Assembly (NCBI GenBank): GCA_021413905.1
Contig: JAIOPO010000005.1
Coordinates: 81,271-145,270, forward strand
Length of the DNA: 64,000 nucleotides
Direction: 5' to 3'
Source: Candidatus Nomurabacteria bacterium
GTDB lineage: Bacteria; Patescibacteriota; Minisyncoccia; Phycocordibacterales; UBA9973
Shown: positions 3,009 through 17,575 of the stretch, one piece after another
How the letters are laid out: each line of letters opens with the position of its first letter
Numbering within the stretch: the stretch's first letter is position 1
Made by a program: the position numbers and the translations under genes
The notes under the pieces: model-generated
Told to the model about the DNA's origin: nothing
What the model saw: the letters and a program-made list of their open reading frames with translations, nothing else
Database searches by the model: none

Positions 3009-3096
3009 ATGTAATAATTATACCATTTGAGAATTTAGATTCAAAGGAATATATAAAAAATATTATTGAAAATATTTTTTATAACACTAAGGTTTG

Positions 3097-3170
3097 TCCA
3101 CCCTCTTGGATTCGAACCAAGGACCCCAGAGGTATAAGCTCTGTGCTCTAACCAACTGAGCTAAGGGTGG
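3097..3170 (-). tRNA. tRNA with anticodon UAU (AUA-decoding tRNA-Ile type).
   Basis: Folds as a 74-nt cloverleaf on the minus strand: acceptor CCACCCT/AGGGTGG, U8, D-arm GCTC-AGTTGGTTA-GAGC with G18G19, anticodon arm CAGAG-CTTATAC-CTCTG (U33, anticodon TAT), T-arm CTTGG-TTCGAAT-CCAAG, discriminator A. No CCA is encoded. Confidence 0.7.
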
Positions 3171-3174
3171 ATAA

Positions 3175-3204
3175 ACAAATGTTTAAGATAAACATTTGTT
3201 ATTG
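3175..3204 (-). terminator. 11-bp AT-rich hairpin between the ftsH stop and the tRNA (terminator or processing site).
   Basis: acaaatgttta-agat-taaacatttgt inverted repeat, read directly from the sequence. Confidence 0.35.
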
Positions 3205-3254
3205 GCTATTTAAATACATTATATTATTTTTAACAAAAAAAACAAATACAAAAT

Positions 3255-5162
3255 CTACACTTCAAGTTTCTTTGGCAAAATACCATTTGCTATGATTATT
3301 TTTTCATAGTCTTCTTGCTCAAGAGTTTCAACTTCAATAAGCTTGTCAGCTATTGCTTTCAATGCTTTTTTGTTTTCAGTCAAAACTTTTTCTGCGGATT
3401 TCAAACCATCATTTATGATTCTTGAAACTTCAGAGTCAATCTTCATAGCGATGTCTTCTGAATATTCTTTTTCAACTGGATCATTCCATTGAGACTTTCC
3501 GCCATCACTGCTGAGAGCCACAGGTCCGATAACATCCGACATCCCCCACCTCGTCACCATAGCGCGAGCGAGGTTCGTCGCCACTTGCAAATCACTCGAA
3601 GGTCCTGTAGTAATATCTCCGAAAATCATTTTCTCCGCCACATATCCGCCAAGGGACATTGCTATGTCATCTATAAATTCTTTTTTGGATTGCAGTTTTC
3701 TTTCTTCGAGTGGAAGCTTCATTGTGTATCCGCCTGCACGTCCGCGAGCAACAATAGAAACTTTATGCACAGGGTCAGCGTATGGCAAGACAGAAGCCAC
3801 GAGCGCATGCCCCGCTTCGTGATATGCAGTAATTTCTTTTTCTTTTTTAGTAAGTAAATGACTTTTTCTTTCAGGTCCCATCATCACTTTTTCTATGGAG
3901 CGTATCAAATCAAATTGAAAAACTTTTTTTCTATTTTCACGCGCTGCCAATATCGCGGACTCATTCATAAGTGAAAACAAATCTGCGCCAGAAAAACCAG
4001 GTGTTCTCTCCGCAATTAATTTCAAATTGATATCTTCAGCCAATGGCTTTTTTAATGAGTGAATTTTTAAAATTTCTTCACGGTCTGCACGGTCAGGTAA
4101 ATCAAGAATAACTTTTCTATCGAAACGTCCCGGGCGAATGAGCGCAGGATCCAAAACATCCGGTCTATTTGTCGCCGCCATTACTATCACTTTATCATTT
4201 GGTTCAAAGCCATCCATCTCCACCAAGATTTGGTTCAATGTCTGCTCACGTTCGTCATTACCCCCACCAAAACCTCCTCCGCGAGTACGCCCTATCGCGT
4301 CTATTTCATCCACGAAAATAATAGCTGGAGCGGATTTCTTTGCCATTTTAAAAAGATCACGCACTCGACTCGCTCCCACACCCACAAACATTTCCACGAA
4401 TTCAGAACCGGATAAATGGAAAAATGGCACGCCTGCTTCCCCTGCTACGGCTCTTGCTAATAAAGTTTTTCCTGTACCAGGTGAACCAGTCAAAATAACT
4501 CCTTTTGGAATTCGCGCACCAATATCCAAAAACTTTTTCGGTGCTTTCAAAAAATCAACGATTTCTAAAAGTTCCTGTTTAGCTTCCTTATTGCCAGCGA
4601 CATCTTTAAATGTGACTTTGCTATTTTGATCATTTGGATCTGTTATGCGTGCTTTTGATTGACCGAAAGTAAAAGCTTGCATGCCTGAGCCTTTTACTTG
4701 TCTGGACATATACCAAAAGAAAAAAATTACAAAAATTACAGGTAGAGCAAATGGTAAAATATTTCCCAACCAAAACAAAACACCATTATCACTCTTTATT
4801 TTTACTTCAACAGCCTGCACAGCTTCGGCTTTTACACCATAATTATATAAAGTCTGAGATAAAGAAGACTCTATTTCTTTTTTAGATTTTTTAACATCGC
4901 CATTTTTGTATGCGATATTTAATTTATCAGCTTCAACAGCAATACTTTTCACTTCTCCAGAAGAAACACTTTTTGCTAAATCAGAAATAGGTATCTCTGG
5001 TATTTCTTTTGAAGAACTAGAAATTACCAAATATAAACCAGTAATCAGCATAAAAATCATAACTGCACCAAATATATTTCCAGTAAAATTTGGCTCTGCA
5101 TCTTTCTTTTTTCCTTTTTTATTCTCTTGTTTATTATTTAAAAAATTTAAATCCATTTTCAT
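3255..5162 (-). CDS. ftsH: ATP-dependent zinc metalloprotease FtsH.
   Basis: N-terminal TM segment, AAA Walker A GSPGTGKT, and zinc motif HEAGHA. Confidence 0.95.
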
Positions 5163-5211
5163 ATATTATCATAAAATTACAAATAAAAAAAGGACATGAT
5201 TTCTCATGCCC

Positions 5212-5553
5212 CTATTTTTTTATTGGATAATATCCTTTGGCAAAACAAGTGCCAGTTTGGACGATTACAATCAATTTATCCTTTTGATAAAAATACTTAA
5301 AACCAAATTGTTTAGCAAATATAATTGACTCTTTGTTTGAAAGATGTAAATCTTTACATAAAGTCATCCCATGCTCAAAACAAATTGTGTCTCGTTTATT
5401 TTCTTCTTCAACAGGATAATCGACAGTACGAACAGGATTTATAACTTCTTTGTTTTTTTTATTACATTTACTCTGAGTAAATAAATAGAAAAACAACAAA
5501 ACGAAAACCGAAGTTAAAACAAGACCCCACTTATTTTTTAATTTACCAGACAT
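5212..5553 (-). CDS. Small exported hypothetical protein (signal peptide or TM anchor followed by Cys; lipoprotein-like).
   Basis: N-terminal hydrophobic segment LVLTSVFVLLFFYLFTQSKC. No recognisable family. Confidence 0.45.
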   Translation of the reverse strand: MSGKLKNKWGLVLTSVFVLLFFYLFTQSKCNKKNKEVINPVRTVDYPVEEENKRDTICFEHGMTLCKDLHLSNKESIIFAKQFGFKYFYQKDKLIVIVQTGTCFAKGYYPIKK

Positions 5554-5620: not shown

Positions 5621-6014
5621 TTTGTGGAACTGACGAGAATTGAACTCGTGTGCAGAAGGTTTTTGCAAAGAAGTCTACATATTTAGCGCATTTTTTTGTT
5701 TAAATTTTAAAATTCTTAAATGAACAAAATATTTTAAAATCGAGTTCTAAATTTTAGTGAAATATGCGAACAAATATTTCCTTATCCCGATAATATTATA
5801 CCCATTCTCATATATCGGAAGTCTATGAGATGGACACCAGTTTGGCTTACGCGAAAGCTGGAGCGAAAGCAAAATCATTCATACCGAAGTATGGTGATGC
5901 TTTCACTTTAGAAGCTAATTTTGCAATTAACATTTGAACTAAGTTTTACGAGATTACGTTCATTCTCGATATGCATCAATAGCAAAAGGCCCACTGTCTA
6001 TGCCTTGCAGTCCC
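5621..6014 (-). ncRNA. ssrA: tmRNA (ssrA, transfer-messenger RNA).
   Basis: The 5' GGGACUG pairs with the 3' CAGUUCC, giving the G3:U70 tRNA-Ala identity pair. The 3' T-arm is ACGAG-TTCAATT-CTCGT followed by a 7-nt acceptor strand and discriminator A. An internal tag reading frame ends ...GMNDFAFAPAFA-UAA. It lies immediately downstream of and co-oriented with smpB. Confidence 0.75.
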
Positions 6015-6026
6015 AATATTTTATTT

Positions 6027-6479
6027 TCAACGTCCTTTATATTCTCTACGAAGCTCTCGGTCTGTGTCGCGTTTTTTTGTAGTTTCACGTTTATCGTATT
6101 TCTTTTTTCCTTTAACCAAAGCTATTTTGACTTTGATTTTTCTACCTTTATTATACACTGCTATTGGTACTATAGTCAAGCTTTTGTTTTTTTCAGTTTC
6201 TACGAGTTCTATGATTTCTTTTTTCGTCAGTAATAATTTTTTATTTCTTAAAGGATCATAATCTTTAGGTGCATTTTTTACTTGATATGGCGGAATATTT
6301 GCATTAATTAAAAAAGCCTCCCCCCCACGGATAACAATAAAAGCCCCTTCGAGAGACATTTTGCCATCACGAACTGATTTTACCTCAGTCCCTAAAAGCT
6401 CAATGCCAGATTCGTAGTTTTCCAAAATCTCATAATCAAAAAGCACTTTTCTATTTTCAGCATAATTTGCCATACACAC
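6027..6479 (-). CDS. smpB: SsrA-binding protein SmpB.
   Basis: The protein starting MANYAEN...GTEVKSVR is typical SmpB and it is adjacent to the tmRNA. The true start is probably the second or third Met. Confidence 0.9.
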   Translation of the reverse strand: MCMANYAENRKVLFDYEILENYESGIELLGTEVKSVRDGKMSLEGAFIVIRGGEAFLINANIPPYQVKNAPKDYDPLRNKKLLLTKKEIIELVETEKNKSLTIVPIAVYNKGRKIKVKIALVKGKKKYDKRETTKKRDTDRELRREYKGR

Positions 6480-9067: not shown

Positions 9068-9670
9068 TTACATCTTAAACTCTGCGATTTTGTCTTTCAT
9101 CACCAGCTCGATGACTTTTGCTACGAGAACTTTCGGATCTGAATCAAAAACAATTTTATCATTTGTCCTGTGTCCTTTTTCAATAATAACCTTCAATTCT
9201 TCAGCCATTTCCCAACCTGGATCTTCTAAAACTCCAATAGGTTTACCATCCTCAAAAGCCACGGTAAATTCGTGAATAGTACCAATACGTCCGCAACCAA
9301 TAAATATCGCATCAGTGGAACGCACGAGCAAGATATCTCGCATTGCGTAACCAAAACCTGTATAAATAACTAAATCCATATAATCCACAGGAAGTTTATA
9401 AACTTCCACATGTTCTTTTTCAGTTGCAGCTGGTGAAAGCCCAATAGAAATACCTCCCACTTCTTTCGCACCCATAGCAGACCATAAAGGAAAACCTGTA
9501 GTAGCACCTGTGACCAATATCCCCCCTTGTCGCACTATTTCTGCACCAAGTTCTTTTGCTTTTCTTAATGCATCATTACCACAATGCCCTGTATCTGCTG
9601 CTCCTGAAACACAAAGTTTTAATTGTCTATGCCCATGTTTTGCATAGGGATTTGCTGAAAGTATATCCAT
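9068..9670 (-). CDS. LOG / TIGR00725-family Rossmann-fold protein.
   Basis: Motifs VTGATTGFPLWSAMGA and GCGRIGTIHEF match the LOG-family GGG..G / PGG.GT..E signatures. Confidence 0.55.
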   Translation of the reverse strand: MDILSANPYAKHGHRQLKLCVSGAADTGHCGNDALRKAKELGAEIVRQGGILVTGATTGFPLWSAMGAKEVGGISIGLSPAATEKEHVEVYKLPVDYMDLVIYTGFGYAMRDILLVRSTDAIFIGCGRIGTIHEFTVAFEDGKPIGVLEDPGWEMAEELKVIIEKGHRTNDKIVFDSDPKVLVAKVIELVMKDKIAEFKM

Positions 9671-11785: not shown

Positions 11786-12259
11786 TTATTTATGTTCAGC
11801 GTAAATAAAATCAGCATCTATCTTTTCATAAGAAAAAATTTCATTTTCAAAAAAGAAACGCGCGACTTCTGTCTCACCAGCCTCTACAGAATCAGAAGCA
11901 TGAACAATATTTGATTGTGTGGAAAGAGAAAAATCTCCGCGAATAGTGCCTGCATTCGCTTCCCAAGCTTTCGTCGGGCCCACTAGTAAACGAATAGCAG
12001 AAACGGCGTTAATGCCTTCTACTGCTAAGACTACCACCGGACAATGTTTCATAAAGTCTCTAATACCAGGAAAAAATGGCTTATCTTTGATATGAGCATA
12101 ATGTTCTTCTAACGTCGCATCTTTTAGATTCATCATTTTCATTCCGACTATTTTTAAACCTTTTCTTTCAAGGCGAGAAACTATTTCTCCCACCAAATTT
12201 CTCTGAACTGCGTCAGGTTTTATAATAATCAATGATTTCTCACTATTTGGTCTTGTCAT
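11786..12259 (-). CDS. ndk: Nucleoside diphosphate kinase.
   Basis: NDK fold with the active-site His in NIVHASD. Confidence 0.9.
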   Translation of the reverse strand: MTRPNSEKSLIIIKPDAVQRNLVGEIVSRLERKGLKIVGMKMMNLKDATLEEHYAHIKDKPFFPGIRDFMKHCPVVVLAVEGINAVSAIRLLVGPTKAWEANAGTIRGDFSLSTQSNIVHASDSVEAGETEVARFFFENEIFSYEKIDADFIYAEHK

Positions 12260-12328: not shown

Positions 12329-13144
12329 CTATTTTACAAATTTGCCGACAATACAAGCCTCAGCTCCTATTTTTTGATTCTTTCTTGGAAAGATAATACA
12401 TTCATTTTTCTTTGATTTAATCTTTTTTATTCCATCTATTGCAAACACAGCATTATCCGGAAGTAATTCAAAATTTTTATAATCTTTCATAAAATTAAAA
12501 TTATTTGTTTTTGCTTTTAAAACTTTGGTAACTTGAACTATTTTTTTATTTGTTCTTTTTTTATTTGAAACATGGAAATCCATCAAATTAAAATAATCTA
12601 TAAATTTATAAATTTGTTTTTTTGCAAATTCTTTATATTCTTCTGGTTTAGAAACCGGACCGCATTCTAAACAAATTCCTATTTTGTTTTGATTTTCCAT
12701 ATAGCCATCCGTTGCCCCCGGTTCTATTTTGTTCCAACCATATGAAATAATATTAACATCAAATATTGAAGCAATATTTAAATTTTTTTTACCACAAATA
12801 ATAAAAGGGTTCCCTTTTGGATCATTAAAAGCATGCAAATCTAGCAAAGCGTTACTTTTATCTAAAATTTTCATTAATACTCTGGCAATAATATCTTCTT
12901 TATTTTTTTCCTTATTATCTTTCAAAAAACAACGATTTAAATTTTTATCCAACATACGAACATTCTTTTTTACAGCTAAAGGATTCGCCACGACAAAATA
13001 AATTATTCCTTTTTTAATTTTTATTTCCTTAATTATTTCTTTTACCGCCAAGACTCCCACCTTTTCATTACCATGAATACCTGAAAAAACAGCCAGCACT
13101 GGTCCTTTTTCTTTTCCTTTGATTGTTTTTACGTATGGTTGCAT
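12329..13144 (-). CDS. Succinylglutamate desuccinylase / aspartoacylase (AstE-AspA, M14-like zinc deacylase) family protein.
   Basis: Zinc-binding GIHGNE and DLH motifs near the N-terminus, as in the AstE/AspA family. Confidence 0.65.
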   Translation of the reverse strand: MQPYVKTIKGKEKGPVLAVFSGIHGNEKVGVLAVKEIIKEIKIKKGIIYFVVANPLAVKKNVRMLDKNLNRCFLKDNKEKNKEDIIARVLMKILDKSNALLDLHAFNDPKGNPFIICGKKNLNIASIFDVNIISYGWNKIEPGATDGYMENQNKIGICLECGPVSKPEEYKEFAKKQIYKFIDYFNLMDFHVSNKKRTNKKIVQVTKVLKAKTNNFNFMKDYKNFELLPDNAVFAIDGIKKIKSKKNECIIFPRKNQKIGAEACIVGKFVK

Positions 13145-13210
13145 TAATAATTAAATAAATATTTATAAATTAAAAAGGGCAAATTAGTTTTACTAAAAGC
13201 CCTTTATAAA

Positions 13211-13765
13211 TTAGAAAAAAACCCAAGAACAATCTTTAAAAAGAGGACAGATCTTACAATTTTCTTTTCTGTCATTACACCGAAGACATAAAGTTTTTCT
13301 TAATGCTTCGCAACAAGAATGGTCTTCCATTAAACAACCATTTACTTTGCGAAAAATTTTCTGAACAACTTCATTACTACTTATACTAACAGAAACCCAA
13401 TTTTTTTCTTTAGCAAATTTTAATCTTTCACGAATCAATGACTCACCTATACCGTTTCCACGGTAATCAGGCAAGACAAAATTTGTACCAATTTCAACAA
13501 CCTTTTTACCGTCAAGATATGGTTCTGACTTATCACAGGTTCTAGGTAAAAAAATACCAGCAGCTCCTATGATTTCATTATTTTCATAACTAAAAACGGC
13601 CATTAATAACGTACTCTTAATCTCATCAACAGACAAAGTAAGCATATGCTTCTCTTCTCTAGTTTTACATGACCACCATTCAAAATTCTGGGTGATTCTT
13701 GCACTTTCTTGTCTATTCCTATCGGTAAAGTCAAAAATTTCCACTTTTTTTTCTGATGTTTTCAT
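13211..13765 (-). CDS. GNAT-family N-acyltransferase with a C-terminal cysteine-rich tail.
   Basis: Acyl-CoA-binding R/Q-x-x-G-x-G/A motif (RGNGIGESL). The C-terminal 45 aa contain 9 Cys (C..CC..C..C..C..C..C). Confidence 0.65.
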   Translation of the reverse strand: MKTSEKKVEIFDFTDRNRQESARITQNFEWWSCKTREEKHMLTLSVDEIKSTLLMAVFSYENNEIIGAAGIFLPRTCDKSEPYLDGKKVVEIGTNFVLPDYRGNGIGESLIRERLKFAKEKNWVSVSISSNEVVQKIFRKVNGCLMEDHSCCEALRKTLCLRCNDRKENCKICPLFKDCSWVFF

Positions 13766-13835
13766 ATTATAAAAAGAACGATGAATTTAAAACAGTCCAA
13801 CTATTATAATATCAAAATAAAAAAAATATTCAAAA

Positions 13836-14747
13836 TTACTTATCCACACCTACCAGAAATTGCAAAATAATATCTTGTGCTATTTTTATTGTCATTTCTG
13901 GTTTATCTTTTTCTGGATTAACTTCAACTAAATCAATAGAGAAAAGTTTCTTTGAAGCCATAATTGGTTGCATGCAAATATTAACCATTTCAGCACTAAA
14001 ACCATTAACATTTGGAGTACCAGTAGCACTGACTAAATCTTTCTTAAATACATCAATATCAAAAGTAACATGCAATACATCCATACGAGAACAAAAATCA
14101 TTTATATATGAAATTATTTCAGAAGAATTTGAATTAATATCATTTGAACTAATAATTTTAATATTTTTCTCATTGATAAATCTTTTTTCTTCATCTTCCA
14201 AAATCAAATTACCAATATATAAAAAATTATCTGTTGGAATACGAACATTGGCAACTTGAATAATATTTTCTTCATCAAAATCACTCAACAAAGGCCTTAG
14301 CCACATACCGTGAACATTTCCAGACGGACTTGTTTTTGATAAATGTATATCACCATGAGAATCAAAGTCTATAAAACCCACTTTTTTGTTTTCTAAAAAT
14401 TTCAAAGAAGCTATATCTGAAGCAAGAGCGACACTATGATCTCCTCCTAAAGTTACTACAAATTTATAATTATTAAAATTCAATTCACTTAAAATTTTTT
14501 CAGATAAATCTTTTGTCTCCTTAGAAAAAACAGAATAATAATCTTCGTCTAATACATCTTCCGGATTCGAAAAACTAAAATCTAATATTTTTAAATTATA
14601 TTTATCTTTTAAATTTCCTAAAAAATGTTCATCTAAAACAGCATCGGGACCATTCTCTACACCTATATTTAAAACTGTATCTCCTCCAAAAGGTAAAAAT
14701 TTCATACCTAGCCGAGATTTTGCTTTTATTAAAAGTAAGTTATTCAT
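13836..14747 (-). CDS. Arginase / agmatinase / formiminoglutamase (ureohydrolase) family protein.
   Basis: Binuclear-Mn ligand motifs GGDHS, DFDSHGD and TFDIDVF. Confidence 0.75.
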   Translation of the reverse strand: MNNLLLIKAKSRLGMKFLPFGGDTVLNIGVENGPDAVLDEHFLGNLKDKYNLKILDFSFSNPEDVLDEDYYSVFSKETKDLSEKILSELNFNNYKFVVTLGGDHSVALASDIASLKFLENKKVGFIDFDSHGDIHLSKTSPSGNVHGMWLRPLLSDFDEENIIQVANVRIPTDNFLYIGNLILEDEEKRFINEKNIKIISSNDINSNSSEIISYINDFCSRMDVLHVTFDIDVFKKDLVSATGTPNVNGFSAEMVNICMQPIMASKKLFSIDLVEVNPEKDKPEMTIKIAQDIILQFLVGVDK

Positions 14748-14800: not shown

Positions 14801-17575
14801 CTACCCATTTCTCTTCTCATATCTGCCCATGATTTCTGCTTCAACTTCTTCCCTGTCACGTCCATATTTGAGATAGGATAATTCTTTCAGACTTTCCACT
14901 ATTTCCGGATTGCCTTTTGGCAACAAAGACCAATGAGATGTCATACTGAAAGGTTTTGTAGGTGTGCCATTTACGAGCATACTCACATAAGAATTAAAAT
15001 TATCCAATTTCATAATATCTGTCGCTGAAAAAGTTGGCTTAAATTTAGACTCAATGGCAGTGGCATCTTCTGGAGAAACACGATAAACAGCCATAGAACC
15101 GACGTTTCCAAAAACAGCATTTTTAATATTTTCTTCAAGTTGAGAAATGTATTGATGAGCGACAGTCAAAGACAAACGATATTTGCGGGCTTCGGAAAGA
15201 ATAGAAGCGATGGAGTCTGTAGTCACATTTTGGAATTCATCGATATAAAGATAAAAATCATTCATCGGTTTGCCAAACATATCCACGCGAGAAAGTGCCG
15301 CCATTTGTATTTTACCTACAAGTAAAAGACCTATCAAATTCGCATTGATGTCTCCCAGGCGACCTTTGGATAAATTAACCAAAAGTATTTTTTTATTATC
15401 CATAATTTCTCGGAAATTAAAAACAGATTTTTCCTGCAAGACCACAGGACGCATAATATCATTTGAAATAAAATTATCAAATTTAGAAGTAATATACGGC
15501 ACAAAGTTTGCCAGGCCTTGGTCACCTGTTGTTTGTTCCGCAGCCATCCAGAATTGCTTGATAATAGGATTTTTACATTTTGCCAATTTCATATCACGAA
15601 ATTCTTTGTCAGTCAAAACACGGGAAATCTCAAGTAATGTACAACCAGACTCAGGATCTTCCATTATCAAAAAAGCGGAATTTTTGAAATATTGTTCAAA
15701 CATCGGCCCACCGGAAGTTTTCATATCAAAAAGTTTATTAAAAATTCCCATCAATTCGTTTACTACAAAAGTTTTTTGTTCAGGATATTTTGGATCAAAT
15801 TCAAGCATATTGAGACCCATAGGACGCGCAGTATATGCAGGATCAAAATAAATAACATCATCAATGCGTTCTTTTGGAACATAAGACAAAATCTCTTGTA
15901 TATCACTACCATGCGGATCTATAAAACAACAACCATCACCATTCATAATATCTTGAGCAATCATATTTTTTAAAATAGTGGTTTTACCAGTACCAGTCTG
16001 ACCTATAACATACATATGACGCATTCTATCTTCACGAGACATATGTATTTCTGTGTCACGTCCTCTATAACTATTTATCCCCAACAATATACCATCTTTG
16101 CCCATTTCCATAGGAGCAGGTGCCATACCGGCTTTTGCTTCTTTGAGTTGAGGTTGACTTGAAATACCGACAGGATAATGAAAAACGGAAGCCAATTCTT
16201 TTAAATTCATCGGTAAAACTTTTCCAGAATTAAATGTGCGATAAGAAAAATCATGAAATAAATCTTTCAAGCCTGAACCTTTTATTTTTTCAAAAACAAA
16301 AGAATTACTCGCTGATTCTTTAAATTGATTAAAAGAAGACTCAATCTCATTCAAAATTTCTTCCGCACGGATTAATGTTTCCGCAGACGCAACAACACGA
16401 ATATTTGCTTTCAAAATTGAACTTTTTAATTTATTACCTATTTTCTCAACAGCCCCCTCATCCACAGGCCTTCGCCCTTTCATATATTTTTCATCTTTTT
16501 GTTCATTTTTTTTAGAATCATCAAATACCAAACCTTTCACTGCTTGAAAAAAAGCATGCTCAAATTTATAAAAATTATCATTTGCATGTTTTACAGAAAT
16601 TCCACTTTTTACATCATCTAAAATCATATGAAATTCTCTTGTAAATTTTTCACCCGCTGGAGCTACGACGATCTGTATAGCTGCTCCTTCTCCTTGTGTT
16701 TTTAATTTTGAAAATACATTCAAAATAGTATTCATAGGATCATGATCTATATTGTCATAAGTTTTTATAGGCAAAATCGGTCTTTCAGAAAAATGAGCAT
16801 AAGCCCCCACAGAAAAACCTTTTTCGTTGAAAAGATTATAATCTTCAGTTACTTCATTTATTTTTGCATCATGATAAAAAGCCAATACTTGTTTTTCAAA
16901 AAGAGAAATATACTTATTTGGAACAGCAGTATATACCACCACCTCATCACTTTGATTTCCTAACGCAACTTCAAGGGTGAAGTAATTGTCTTTTGAATTA
17001 AATTTATCTTCAGCTATTGATTGCATACCCGCATAAAATTGTTCCATTGCACCAATAAATTCTTTGAAACCTTTTTGCATTTCAGCTTCGTCTTTTGACG
17101 GTGGTAATGTAATTTCAAACAATGTCATATTTAAAGATTTCCAAATAGGTGTACCTTCTTTTAAACCAGAAATAAGTTGCCCTGTCTTTAAATACTGAAC
17201 CAATAATCTATGAAAATCATCATCGACATGAGCATTGTTCATTGAACTTACAGTATCTAAAGCATTTTTTATTCCCTTGGTTAATAAAATACCCAAAAGT
17301 TCTTCCATCACCACATCATGCTTTTCGGGTTTCAATTTTAAAATAATCGTTTCTTTTTCTTTTTTATTCAATAAATTATCTTTACTTAAAACATCAACAG
17401 AAGAAACTTTTTCATATTCAGAAATTGTATTATTCAACGTGTCAATTTCAGCATTTTCAAAATGACCCCTATCGATTAATTCTTTTTCTTTTTGAGCAAC
17501 ATGTGCGCGCAAATACTCCAATTCTTCATTTGGAGTTTTAAATTTTGGTATATCTTTAAAATATGAATTTTCCAT
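14801..17575 (-). CDS. Large P-loop ATPase. The C-terminal half is a TraG/VirD4/FtsK-HerA-type (type IV secretion coupling-protein-like) ATPase domain. The N-terminal ~500 aa are uncharacterised.
   Basis: Walker A GQTGTGKTT, Walker B LYIDEFQ, and a C-terminal TraD/TraG-like segment (RKYRLSLTVAHQYISQL). No N-terminal TM helices. Confidence 0.6.
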   Translation of the reverse strand: MENSYFKDIPKFKTPNEELEYLRAHVAQKEKELIDRGHFENAEIDTLNNTISEYEKVSSVDVLSKDNLLNKKEKETIILKLKPEKHDVVMEELLGILLTKGIKNALDTVSSMNNAHVDDDFHRLLVQYLKTGQLISGLKEGTPIWKSLNMTLFEITLPPSKDEAEMQKGFKEFIGAMEQFYAGMQSIAEDKFNSKDNYFTLEVALGNQSDEVVVYTAVPNKYISLFEKQVLAFYHDAKINEVTEDYNLFNEKGFSVGAYAHFSERPILPIKTYDNIDHDPMNTILNVFSKLKTQGEGAAIQIVVAPAGEKFTREFHMILDDVKSGISVKHANDNFYKFEHAFFQAVKGLVFDDSKKNEQKDEKYMKGRRPVDEGAVEKIGNKLKSSILKANIRVVASAETLIRAEEILNEIESSFNQFKESASNSFVFEKIKGSGLKDLFHDFSYRTFNSGKVLPMNLKELASVFHYPVGISSQPQLKEAKAGMAPAPMEMGKDGILLGINSYRGRDTEIHMSREDRMRHMYVIGQTGTGKTTILKNMIAQDIMNGDGCCFIDPHGSDIQEILSYVPKERIDDVIYFDPAYTARPMGLNMLEFDPKYPEQKTFVVNELMGIFNKLFDMKTSGGPMFEQYFKNSAFLIMEDPESGCTLLEISRVLTDKEFRDMKLAKCKNPIIKQFWMAAEQTTGDQGLANFVPYITSKFDNFISNDIMRPVVLQEKSVFNFREIMDNKKILLVNLSKGRLGDINANLIGLLLVGKIQMAALSRVDMFGKPMNDFYLYIDEFQNVTTDSIASILSEARKYRLSLTVAHQYISQLEENIKNAVFGNVGSMAVYRVSPEDATAIESKFKPTFSATDIMKLDNFNSYVSMLVNGTPTKPFSMTSHWSLLPKGNPEIVESLKELSYLKYGRDREEVEAEIMGRYEKRNG

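Follow-up and report, generated by a model that had tools for sequence, protein, structure and literature searches.

Adjacent arginase-type, GNAT and AstE/AspA-family genes in a Candidatus Nomurabacteria genome: a candidate pairing of two separate units

Gene layout and enzyme families

A 64-kb stretch of low-GC DNA from a Candidatus Nomurabacteria bacterium (referred to below as the window), a member of the candidate phyla radiation (CPR; Patescibacteria), carries three minus-strand open reading frames (ORFs) side by side. In order of transcription, they encode a 303-residue binuclear-Mn ureohydrolase of the arginase family (positions 13836 to 14747), a small 184-residue GNAT acyl coenzyme A (acyl-CoA) N-acyltransferase with a Cys-rich C-terminal insert (13211 to 13765), and a compact 271-residue zinc amidohydrolase of the AstE/AspA family (12329 to 13144), referred to here as the deacylase. 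A previous reading of the locus from its letters (the sequence-only reading) described three adjacent same-strand genes with 66- to 70-bp gaps and proposed that together they acylate a substrate, hydrolyze its guanidino or amidino group, and deacylate the product. The ORF list agrees exactly with that layout, giving an arginase-GNAT spacer of 70 bp (13766 to 13835, minus strand) and a GNAT-deacylase spacer of 66 bp (13145 to 13210). Pfam likewise returned the same three families as the sequence-only reading: Arginase (PF00491; E = 3.5e-41, 142 bits against a cutoff of 22), Acetyltransf_1 (PF00583; E = 7.5e-10, 39.6 bits against a threshold of 20.7), and AstE_AspA_cat (PF24827; E = 1.9e-20, 73.7 bits against a threshold of 25). 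The C-terminal AstE/AspA hybrid domain of the deacylase scored 22.3, just under its threshold of 25. GenBank holds identical proteins under family-level names ("arginase family protein," "GNAT family N-acetyltransferase," and [quoted passage not shown]). Homologs numbered 613 for the arginase-family protein (E ≤ 1e-3), 111 for the deacylase, and 6 for the GNAT, the last among 5.8 billion proteins. All three are real, conserved genes predicted to encode catalytically intact enzymes, and each adds a new, divergent protein to an established family.

The ureohydrolase looks like an arginase. Its motifs GGDHS (residues 101 to 105), DFDSHGD (127 to 133), and TFDIDVF (228 to 234), like GIHGNE at residues 22 to 27 of the deacylase, lie in the translations just as first quoted. 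Eight residues—H104, D129, H131, D133, D230, D232, H146, and E275—are invariant among 30 homologs (35 to 57% identity), and H104, D129, H131, D133, D230, and D232 align with the Mn ligands of Bacillus arginase. The corresponding binuclear-Mn ligands of rat arginase are H101, D124, H126, D128, D232, and D234. The loop TSPSGNVHGM is near-identical to the Bacillus arginase loop, and the segment IGNLILEDEE aligns with the arginase segment IG(A/L)R(S/D)xDxGE, so that E184 and E187 land on its acidic pair. In arginases, this pair (rat D183 and E186) contacts the free alpha-amino group, and rat N130, S137, N139, and H141 act with D183 and E186 to bind the alpha-carboxylate and alpha-amino group of the substrate. 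S142, N144, H146, and E187 are conserved in the ureohydrolase and its homologs, and position 184 is Asp or Glu in nearly all of them. An N-terminal motif, SRLGMK..P..G..LN.GVE, marks the protein as part of a CPR-wide subfamily; literature searches for a CPR arginase returned nothing relevant.

Arginases also came out nearest when the protein was ranked by model and structure searches against the ureohydrolase types, among which the sequence-only reading had proposed a phylogenetic placement. NCBIfam ranked rocF_arginase first (128 bits), followed by HutG (76.7) and agmatinase (TIGR01230; 69.2, below its cutoff of 174.3). Among solved structures, a single-sequence search returned arginases at 1e-29 and agmatinases at 2e-9 or worse, and a search with the family profile placed 44 arginases (4e-47 to 3e-28) ahead of the first agmatinase (1e-20). 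Relatives own a separate, bona fide agmatinase paralog that scores above the cutoff (192 versus 174.3 bits; locus L003, 9597 to 10511), which argues that the window-type ureohydrolase is not itself an agmatinase; together with the NCBIfam and PDB rankings, this led us to reject an agmatinase identity. The protein thus appears to be a distinct arginase-type paralog that groups with true L-arginine arginases, and L-arginine is fairly likely to be its substrate. With the binding site for the alpha-amino group apparently retained, the enzyme would be ill suited to N-acylated arginine as a substrate.

The deacylase resembles succinylglutamate desuccinylase (AstE) most closely. Among 35 homologs (33 to 64% identity), H24, E27, H104, E160, R63, N70, R71, and Y148 are invariant; of these, H24, E27, and H104 form the predicted Zn site, E160 is the predicted base, and R63, N70, and R71 are the predicted carboxylate clamp. 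In CphZ, the matching Arg/Asn/Arg triad is what holds the liberated amino acid by its carboxylate (PMC9974463). Every homolog with a taxonomic name belongs to the CPR. The top solved match of the family profile was the Vibrio succinylglutamate desuccinylase (E = 1e-24, full length). An AlphaFold2 model (predicted local distance difference test [pLDDT] score of 96) gave Foldseek matches to AstE (template modeling [TM] scores of 0.79 to 0.81), DoeB/EutE (0.76), and CphZ (0.65 to 0.73), with weaker matches to aspartoacylase, aminoacylase 3 (ACY3), and Csd4. A fragment search aimed at a residue-level alignment of the deacylase pocket to CphZ or DoeB gave no match. Scores against named subfamily models were low: 33.6 versus a cutoff of 305.65 (TIGR03242) and 58.8 versus 170 (NF003706) for AstE, and 67.2 versus 180 for aspartoacylase (NF002601). 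Asp146, in the motif GATDGY, is near-invariant, and Vibrio AstE has Phe at that place. The nearest solved relatives—AstE, DoeB, CphZ, ASPA, and ACY3—are amidases, each of which liberates an amino acid whose carboxylate is free. The deacylase is thus predicted to be an active amidase whose released amino acid has a free alpha-carboxylate, and it is probably an N-acyl-amino-acid or isopeptide hydrolase.

In the GNAT, the acyl-CoA-binding motif R102-G-N-G105-I-G107 is intact, with R102, G105, and G107 invariant. The AlphaFold2 model (pLDDT, 86) adopts a GNAT fold, and its fold search returned generic matches only—AAC(2')-Ia, Naa50, and phosphinothricin acetyltransferase, at TM scores of ~0.5 to 0.58—so assignment of an acceptor from structure was dropped. 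Ahead of the last strand, all homologs carry a Cys-rich insert (LCLRC...CxxCP...C.W.F) in which C160, C170, and C173 are always present and C163 and C179 usually so (window positions 13211 to 13330, the C-terminal 40 residues). This insert, modeled at low confidence (pLDDT, 56 to 78), may form a metal-binding knuckle. At one metagenome locus (L086, 1869 to 4262), a 248-residue transposase-like ORF seems to split a Cys-tailed GNAT immediately upstream of an AstE-like gene, leaving fragments at 1869 to 2132 and 3158 to 3403.

Folding of the spacers placed a terminator-like hairpin followed by a U-run right after the GNAT stop codon (13166 to 13213, minus strand; -13.8 kcal/mol, z = -2.4; 4 of 200 shuffled sequences fold as well). 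The one other genome with the same three genes (L007) has an equivalent GC-rich hairpin and U-run of different sequence at the same place (-17.6 kcal/mol, z = -2.5). The arginase-GNAT spacer is AT-rich and has no stable hairpin (-4.9 kcal/mol, z = +0.54). It contains a promoter-like TTGAAT-16-TATTAT at 13833 to 13806; promoter-like matches in the region were not above chance (29 found versus 33.8 expected). A consensus scan for promoters and terminators gave no excess over shuffled sequence, the post-GNAT hairpin having emerged from folding only. Since a hairpin and U-run lie between GNAT and deacylase in both genomes, the signals suggest that the arginase and GNAT genes form one transcription unit and that the deacylase is a separate or read-through unit. 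The arginase is probably cotranscribed with the Cys-tailed GNAT.

Neighborhoods of the three genes across CPR genomes

We compared 80 genome loci with arginase relatives and fetched 80 metagenome loci for the deacylase, 78 of which had a recognizable deacylase gene. The deacylase neighborhoods were dominated by partners other than arginase, which was present at none of the 78 loci. A GNAT gene lay beside the deacylase at ~35 of them (29 by hidden Markov model [HMM] within three genes, plus 5 to 6 more by Pfam), a Trp_repressor-family (YerC/YecD-like) gene was nearby at 21, and a GCS2-like carboxylate-amine ligase took the place of the GNAT at 5 to 6. When loci with at least four visible neighbors were considered, 24 of 46 had a GNAT or a GCS2-like ligase. 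Polyamine genes were absent from the 78 loci, and an arginyl-tRNA synthetase (ArgRS) gene was found in two cases only. Because these neighbors recur without arginase, the CPR-wide unit would be an amide-forming enzyme, an AstE-like hydrolase, and a regulator, not the three genes of the window. Literature searches for aspartoacylase-GNAT operons returned nothing relevant.

Several features of this neighborhood (L087 to L164) can be described in their own right. The GNAT proteins have a PPWNE-type N-terminal motif, and the Trp_repressor-family protein is 104 residues long; examples lie at L093 (1725 to 3628), L144 (5989 to 7929), and L161 (5989 to 8156). The GCS2-like ligases that replace the GNAT at 5 to 6 loci are 295 to 323 residues long. 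LD-carboxypeptidase or M15 genes occur near AstE in several loci.

On the arginase side, only two of the 80 genome loci show the exact order arginase-GNAT-AstE: the contig that holds the window, and L007. An HMM survey of ~70 CPR arginase loci outside the closest clade found no AstE-family gene, along with one distant M20 match and two marginal GNAT matches. The closest clade, which we call Nomurabacteria-like and define by arginases at least 42% identical to that of the window, was examined at 13 loci. Its arginase genes lie in an arginine/polyamine island whose members are DnaJ, ArgRS, arginase, a SpeA-like arginine decarboxylase, a deoxyhypusine synthase-like gene of the homospermidine type, and a convergent agmatinase. 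ArgRS is directly upstream of arginase in L002, L006, L008, L082, and L168. A polyamine cluster recurs in L002 to L004, L006, and L165 to L168, with the SpeA-like decarboxylase (458 residues), the deoxyhypusine synthase-like gene, whose best model match is to homospermidine biosynthesis, and the convergent agmatinase; L083 has carboxy(nor)spermidine dehydrogenase/decarboxylase-like genes instead. The 64-kb window contains no member of either set.

Within this clade, the genes beside arginase vary in family, order, and orientation. Writing ARG for the arginase gene, ADC for the arginine decarboxylase gene, and DHS for the deoxyhypusine synthase-like gene, we found GNAT-M20-ARG-ADC-DHS in L003, ARG-M20 in L165, ATP-grasp-AstE-ARG-ADC-DHS in L004, ATP-grasp-AstE-ARG in L167, ATP-grasp-AstE-ArgRS-PRS-ARG in L166, and ARG-PALP-GNAT-MR_MLE-AstE in L002; L168 combines a divergent AstE, ArgRS-ARG, and a convergent GNAT. 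At least three subgroups, only 19 to 36% identical to one another, are represented among the AstE proteins next to arginase. The sequence-only reading had asked about conservation of the three genes in relatives: the exact set recurs in one other genome, while a generalized set of amide-forming enzyme, metallo-amidohydrolase, and this arginase paralog is recognizable within one clade only. The outcome that it had named as refuting its proposal, a lack of co-conservation elsewhere, therefore applies for the most part, though not fully.

The window-type GNAT has its own range of settings. It stands in the order ARG-GNAT-AstE in the window and L007, in ArgRS-ARG-GNAT-M15 dipeptidase with a convergent aspartate-type racemase in L006 and L082, in ArgRS-GNAT-M15 in L083, and in GNAT-M15-racemase-...-MR_MLE in L084. 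More distant relatives (35 to 40% identical) were seen in L091, L100, and L136, in each case next to AstE. A 308-residue protein from a Logan contig (P0078) joins arginase residues 1 to ~205 in frame to the C-terminal half of a window-type GNAT. It lacks D230, D232, and E275 and was for that reason rejected, as a deletion or chimera, from use as an arginase-GNAT fusion in the Rosetta-stone sense; it is likely a pseudogene or an assembly chimera.

Two units or one arginine pathway

The reading that we favor, to which we would give about an even chance, is that the locus holds an ordinary arginase and a separate GNAT/AstE-type N-acyl-amino-acid module, adjacent through lineage-specific gene order and not parts of a single acyl-protection pathway. 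In the first unit, two Mn ions would activate water for attack on the guanidinium carbon of free L-arginine, giving L-ornithine and urea, a chemistry predicted from the family and the conserved residues. In the second, the Zn site (His24, Glu27, and His104) and the base Glu160 would hydrolyze an amide, with Arg63, Asn70, and Arg71 gripping the amino acid product by its free alpha-carboxylate. Since this hydrolase subfamily accompanies an amide-forming enzyme and a TrpR/YerC-like regulator and not arginase, the GNAT and hydrolase most likely form and cleave an N-acylated amino acid, for which Glu/Asp-type and basic amino acids are the candidates. The adjacency of the two units would follow from repeated gene exchange in the arginine/polyamine island of the clade, where acyltransferase or ligase genes and AstE, M20, or M15 hydrolase genes appear to have been swapped time and again beside arginase. 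At most a loose link between the units, through arginine or ornithine supply, is possible.

A number of observations weigh against this two-unit reading. The arginase score of 128 bits is below the equivalog cutoff of TIGR01229 (227.6), and His135 occupies the position of arginase Asn130 in the window clade, where some other CPR members have Asn. The window GNAT belongs to a rare subfamily, unlike the GNAT that usually stands beside this deacylase; many GNAT/AstE pairs elsewhere are convergent and not operonic; and P0078, artifact or not, records one further arginase-GNAT adjacency. At every one of the 13 loci of the Nomurabacteria-like clade, the arginase gene has an AstE, M20, or window-type GNAT gene no more than a few genes away, and ~9 of the 13 have both an amide-forming enzyme and a hydrolase, in varying orders, orientations, and families. 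This is a pattern suggestive of selection on a functional triad, not of frozen synteny. It is the strongest point for a functional link and the reason for not discarding the sequence-only scheme altogether, yet it is seen in a single lineage, where gene order is conserved in other respects.

The first alternative, which we consider unlikely, builds on this pattern: all three genes would serve the arginine economy of an auxotroph through salvage or storage of an arginine conjugate. The GNAT, or an ATP-grasp ligase in relatives, would make the conjugate, and the AstE-like enzyme, with M20 or M15 enzymes in its place in relatives, would free arginine or ornithine from an N-acyl or isopeptide form to feed arginase, ArgRS, and the decarboxylase. 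A hydrolase and an amide-forming enzyme stand beside the arginase paralog in 9 to 13 of the 13 clade loci, with nonorthologous replacement (L003 versus L004), and the island as a whole is arginine themed, holding ArgRS, the SpeA-like decarboxylase, agmatinase, and the deoxyhypusine synthase-like gene. The fold match of the deacylase to the arginine-releasing CphZ and the shared Arg/Asn/Arg clamp (PMC9974463) are consistent with such a role, and Asp146 could conceivably bind a basic side chain. However, AstE and DoeB outrank CphZ as structural matches, and the window-type AstE occurs at the 78 loci without arginase or polyamine genes and with ArgRS in two only. The low mutual identity of the arginase-adjacent AstE proteins and the hairpin that parts the deacylase from arginase and GNAT also count against a shared function, and a tblastn search of the 64-kb window found no homolog of ArgRS or of polyamine genes (among them decarboxylase and deoxyhypusine synthase-like genes). 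A variant restricted to the one Nomurabacteria-like lineage, in which an acyltransferase or ATP-grasp enzyme conjugates arginine or ornithine, an AstE, M20, or M15 hydrolase frees it, and a dedicated arginase paralog channels it alongside ArgRS, arginine decarboxylase, agmatinase, and a homospermidine synthase-like enzyme, seems quite unlikely. If true, this modular cycle would give an ultra-small, auxotrophic bacterium an arginine buffer akin to cyanophycin on a miniature scale.

A second alternative, also of low probability, leaves the arginase aside as unrelated and assigns the other two genes to salvage of D-amino acids or cell wall peptides. The GNAT would N-acylate a D-amino acid, for example D-Glu or D-Asp, an N-acyl-amino-acid racemase of the enolase superfamily would invert it, and the AstE-like enzyme would deacylate it to the L form. 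Gene order in a few relatives fits this scheme: L002 has GNAT, MR_MLE, and AstE genes in succession with a 2-nt gap between the last two; L108 groups AstE, racemase, MR_MLE, and GNAT; and in L006, L082, and L084 a VanX-like M15 dipeptidase comes next after the window-type GNAT, and genes for an aspartate-type racemase and MR_MLE are close by. The MR_MLE proteins match models for Ala-Glu epimerase, DgcA, and low-GC OSBS/NSAR, the nearest solved relative of the hydrolase is an N-succinyl-L-glutamate desuccinylase, and the LD-carboxypeptidase or M15 genes close to AstE in several loci are in keeping with a peptide source. All MR_MLE scores are far under the equivalog cutoffs, however; most AstE-GNAT loci have no racemase; and none of the MR_MLE, racemase, or M15 homologs sought by tblastn is present in the window.

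The three-step scheme of the sequence-only reading, a shortened route like the arginine succinyltransferase (AST) pathway in which arginine, agmatine, or some other guanidino compound is acylated by the GNAT, hydrolyzed at its guanidino group by the arginase-family enzyme while acylated, and then deacylated by the AstE-like enzyme, is very improbable: the genes are adjacent on one strand, recur in L007 with an analogous GNAT-M20-ARG order in L003, and include a hydrolase nearest to AstE, but the ureohydrolase clusters with true arginases and keeps most of the positions by which those enzymes contact the alpha-amino and alpha-carboxylate groups of free arginine, the net outcome would match plain arginase while spending an acyl-CoA, AstA, AstB, AstC, and AstD were not found near the three genes (ORF list and Pfam, ~6 kb on the side of the nucleoside diphosphate kinase gene and ~9 kb on the other), the transcription order runs arginase, GNAT, terminator-like hairpin, AstE, arginase is missing from all 78 deacylase loci, and there is no co-occurrence outside one lineage.

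If the two-unit reading is true, the biochemistry at this locus would be ordinary: a divergent arginase next to a conventional acyltransferase/deacylase pair. Two by-products of the comparison are worth more than the original idea. One is a compact AstE/AspA subfamily, seen in CPR records only, whose repeated partners are a GNAT (or a GCS2-like ligase) and a TrpR/YerC-like regulator; the other is an island in one lineage where unlike acyl-forming and acyl-hydrolyzing families swap places beside an arginase paralog. Both this modular island and the CPR-wide AstE-like/GNAT/TrpR-like module are conventional in kind, and both could bear on the management of amino acids and polyamines in arginine-auxotrophic, host-dependent CPR bacteria.

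Flanking genes and comparison with known systems

Directly upstream of the three genes, a minus-strand ORF (14801 to 17575) encodes a 924-residue VirD4/TraD-like coupling-protein ATPase (TrwB_AAD_bind, T4SS-DNA_transf, and TraG-D_C domains; SXT_TraD model). It is a context gene outside the pathway. Homologs of this type IV coupling protein (T4CP)-like ATPase, 36 to 37% identical to it, stand divergently beside an arginase homolog in five distant CPR genomes (Roizmanbacteria-like; L009, L010, L012, L019, and L070), at ~3100 to 5400 on the minus strand of each locus, an adjacency kept over large divergence. Directly downstream lies the minus-strand gene for nucleoside diphosphate kinase (Ndk; 11786 to 12259; PF00334, E = 1.5e-49). 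The flanks, covered for ~6 kb toward Ndk and ~9 kb in the opposite direction, hold the T4CP-like ATPase, Ndk, a membrane protein, a beta-CASP RNase, an SLOG protein, translation genes, methionine aminopeptidase, kinases, and SecY. The SLOG protein is of the SLOG-cluster4 type (LDcluster4, LOG/TIR-like; 9068 to 9670, minus strand) and is encoded ~2.7 kb downstream of the three genes; a SLOG-cluster4 gene in L084 (6872 to 7414) adjoins the MR_MLE gene. Farther off, the window carries a minus-strand tRNA-Ile with the anticodon TAT (UAU; 3096 to 3170), an uncommon bacterial solution for reading AUA codons, and a minus-strand tmRNA gene (tag AKLASKVKASPYFGMNDFAFAPAFA; 5624 to 6014) that adjoins smpB (6027 to 6479, minus strand).

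Among characterized enzymes, the ureohydrolase is most like RocF arginase of Bacillus subtilis and B. caldovelox (EC 3.5.3.1), with which it shares the fold, the six Mn ligands, the catalytic residues His (H146) and Glu (E275), the SPSGNxHGM loop, and the acidic pair. It differs in being ~30% identical and below the TIGR01229 cutoff, in having His135 in place of Asn130, and in belonging to a CPR-wide subfamily of its own. As in the AST pathway, an acyltransferase and an AstE-family hydrolase adjoin an arginine-degrading enzyme, but the locus is without an AstA-type transferase, AstC, and AstD and has an arginase-fold enzyme instead of the dihydrolase AstB. Compared with AstE itself, the hydrolase is ~50 to 80 residues shorter and far under the equivalog cutoffs.

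Pairs of a GNAT and an AstE/AspA-family zinc deacylase are also established elsewhere: NAT8L and aspartoacylase act on N-acetylaspartate in mammals, and EctA and DoeB act on acetyl-diaminobutyrate in ectoine metabolism. The ~35 of 78 CPR loci with a GNAT beside the deacylase resemble these pairs, but the CPR proteins belong to other GNAT subfamilies and are often accompanied by a TrpR/YerC-like regulator and sometimes have a GCS2-like ligase instead. CphZ, which releases arginine, has the AstE-family fold, the Arg/Asn/Arg clamp, and the Glu base in common with the deacylase (PMC9974463). It is longer (365 versus 271 residues) and a weaker fold match than AstE or DoeB, and no cyanophycin genes were seen; its D222 and E223 form an acidic pocket for guanidinium, and its specificity is for beta-Asp-Arg (PMC9974463). 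Finally, the Geobacillus kaustophilus D-to-L pathway of GNAT succinyltransferase, NSAR, and M20 desuccinylase (bioRxiv 10.1101/2022.03.03.481873) and the DgcN-DgcA D-glutamate pathway (PMC10845958) offer a parallel in the combination of GNAT and deacylase, to which L002, L006, L084, and L108 add an enolase-superfamily racemase or epimerase. The window differs from them in having no racemase and in having a deacylase of the AstE family in place of M20.

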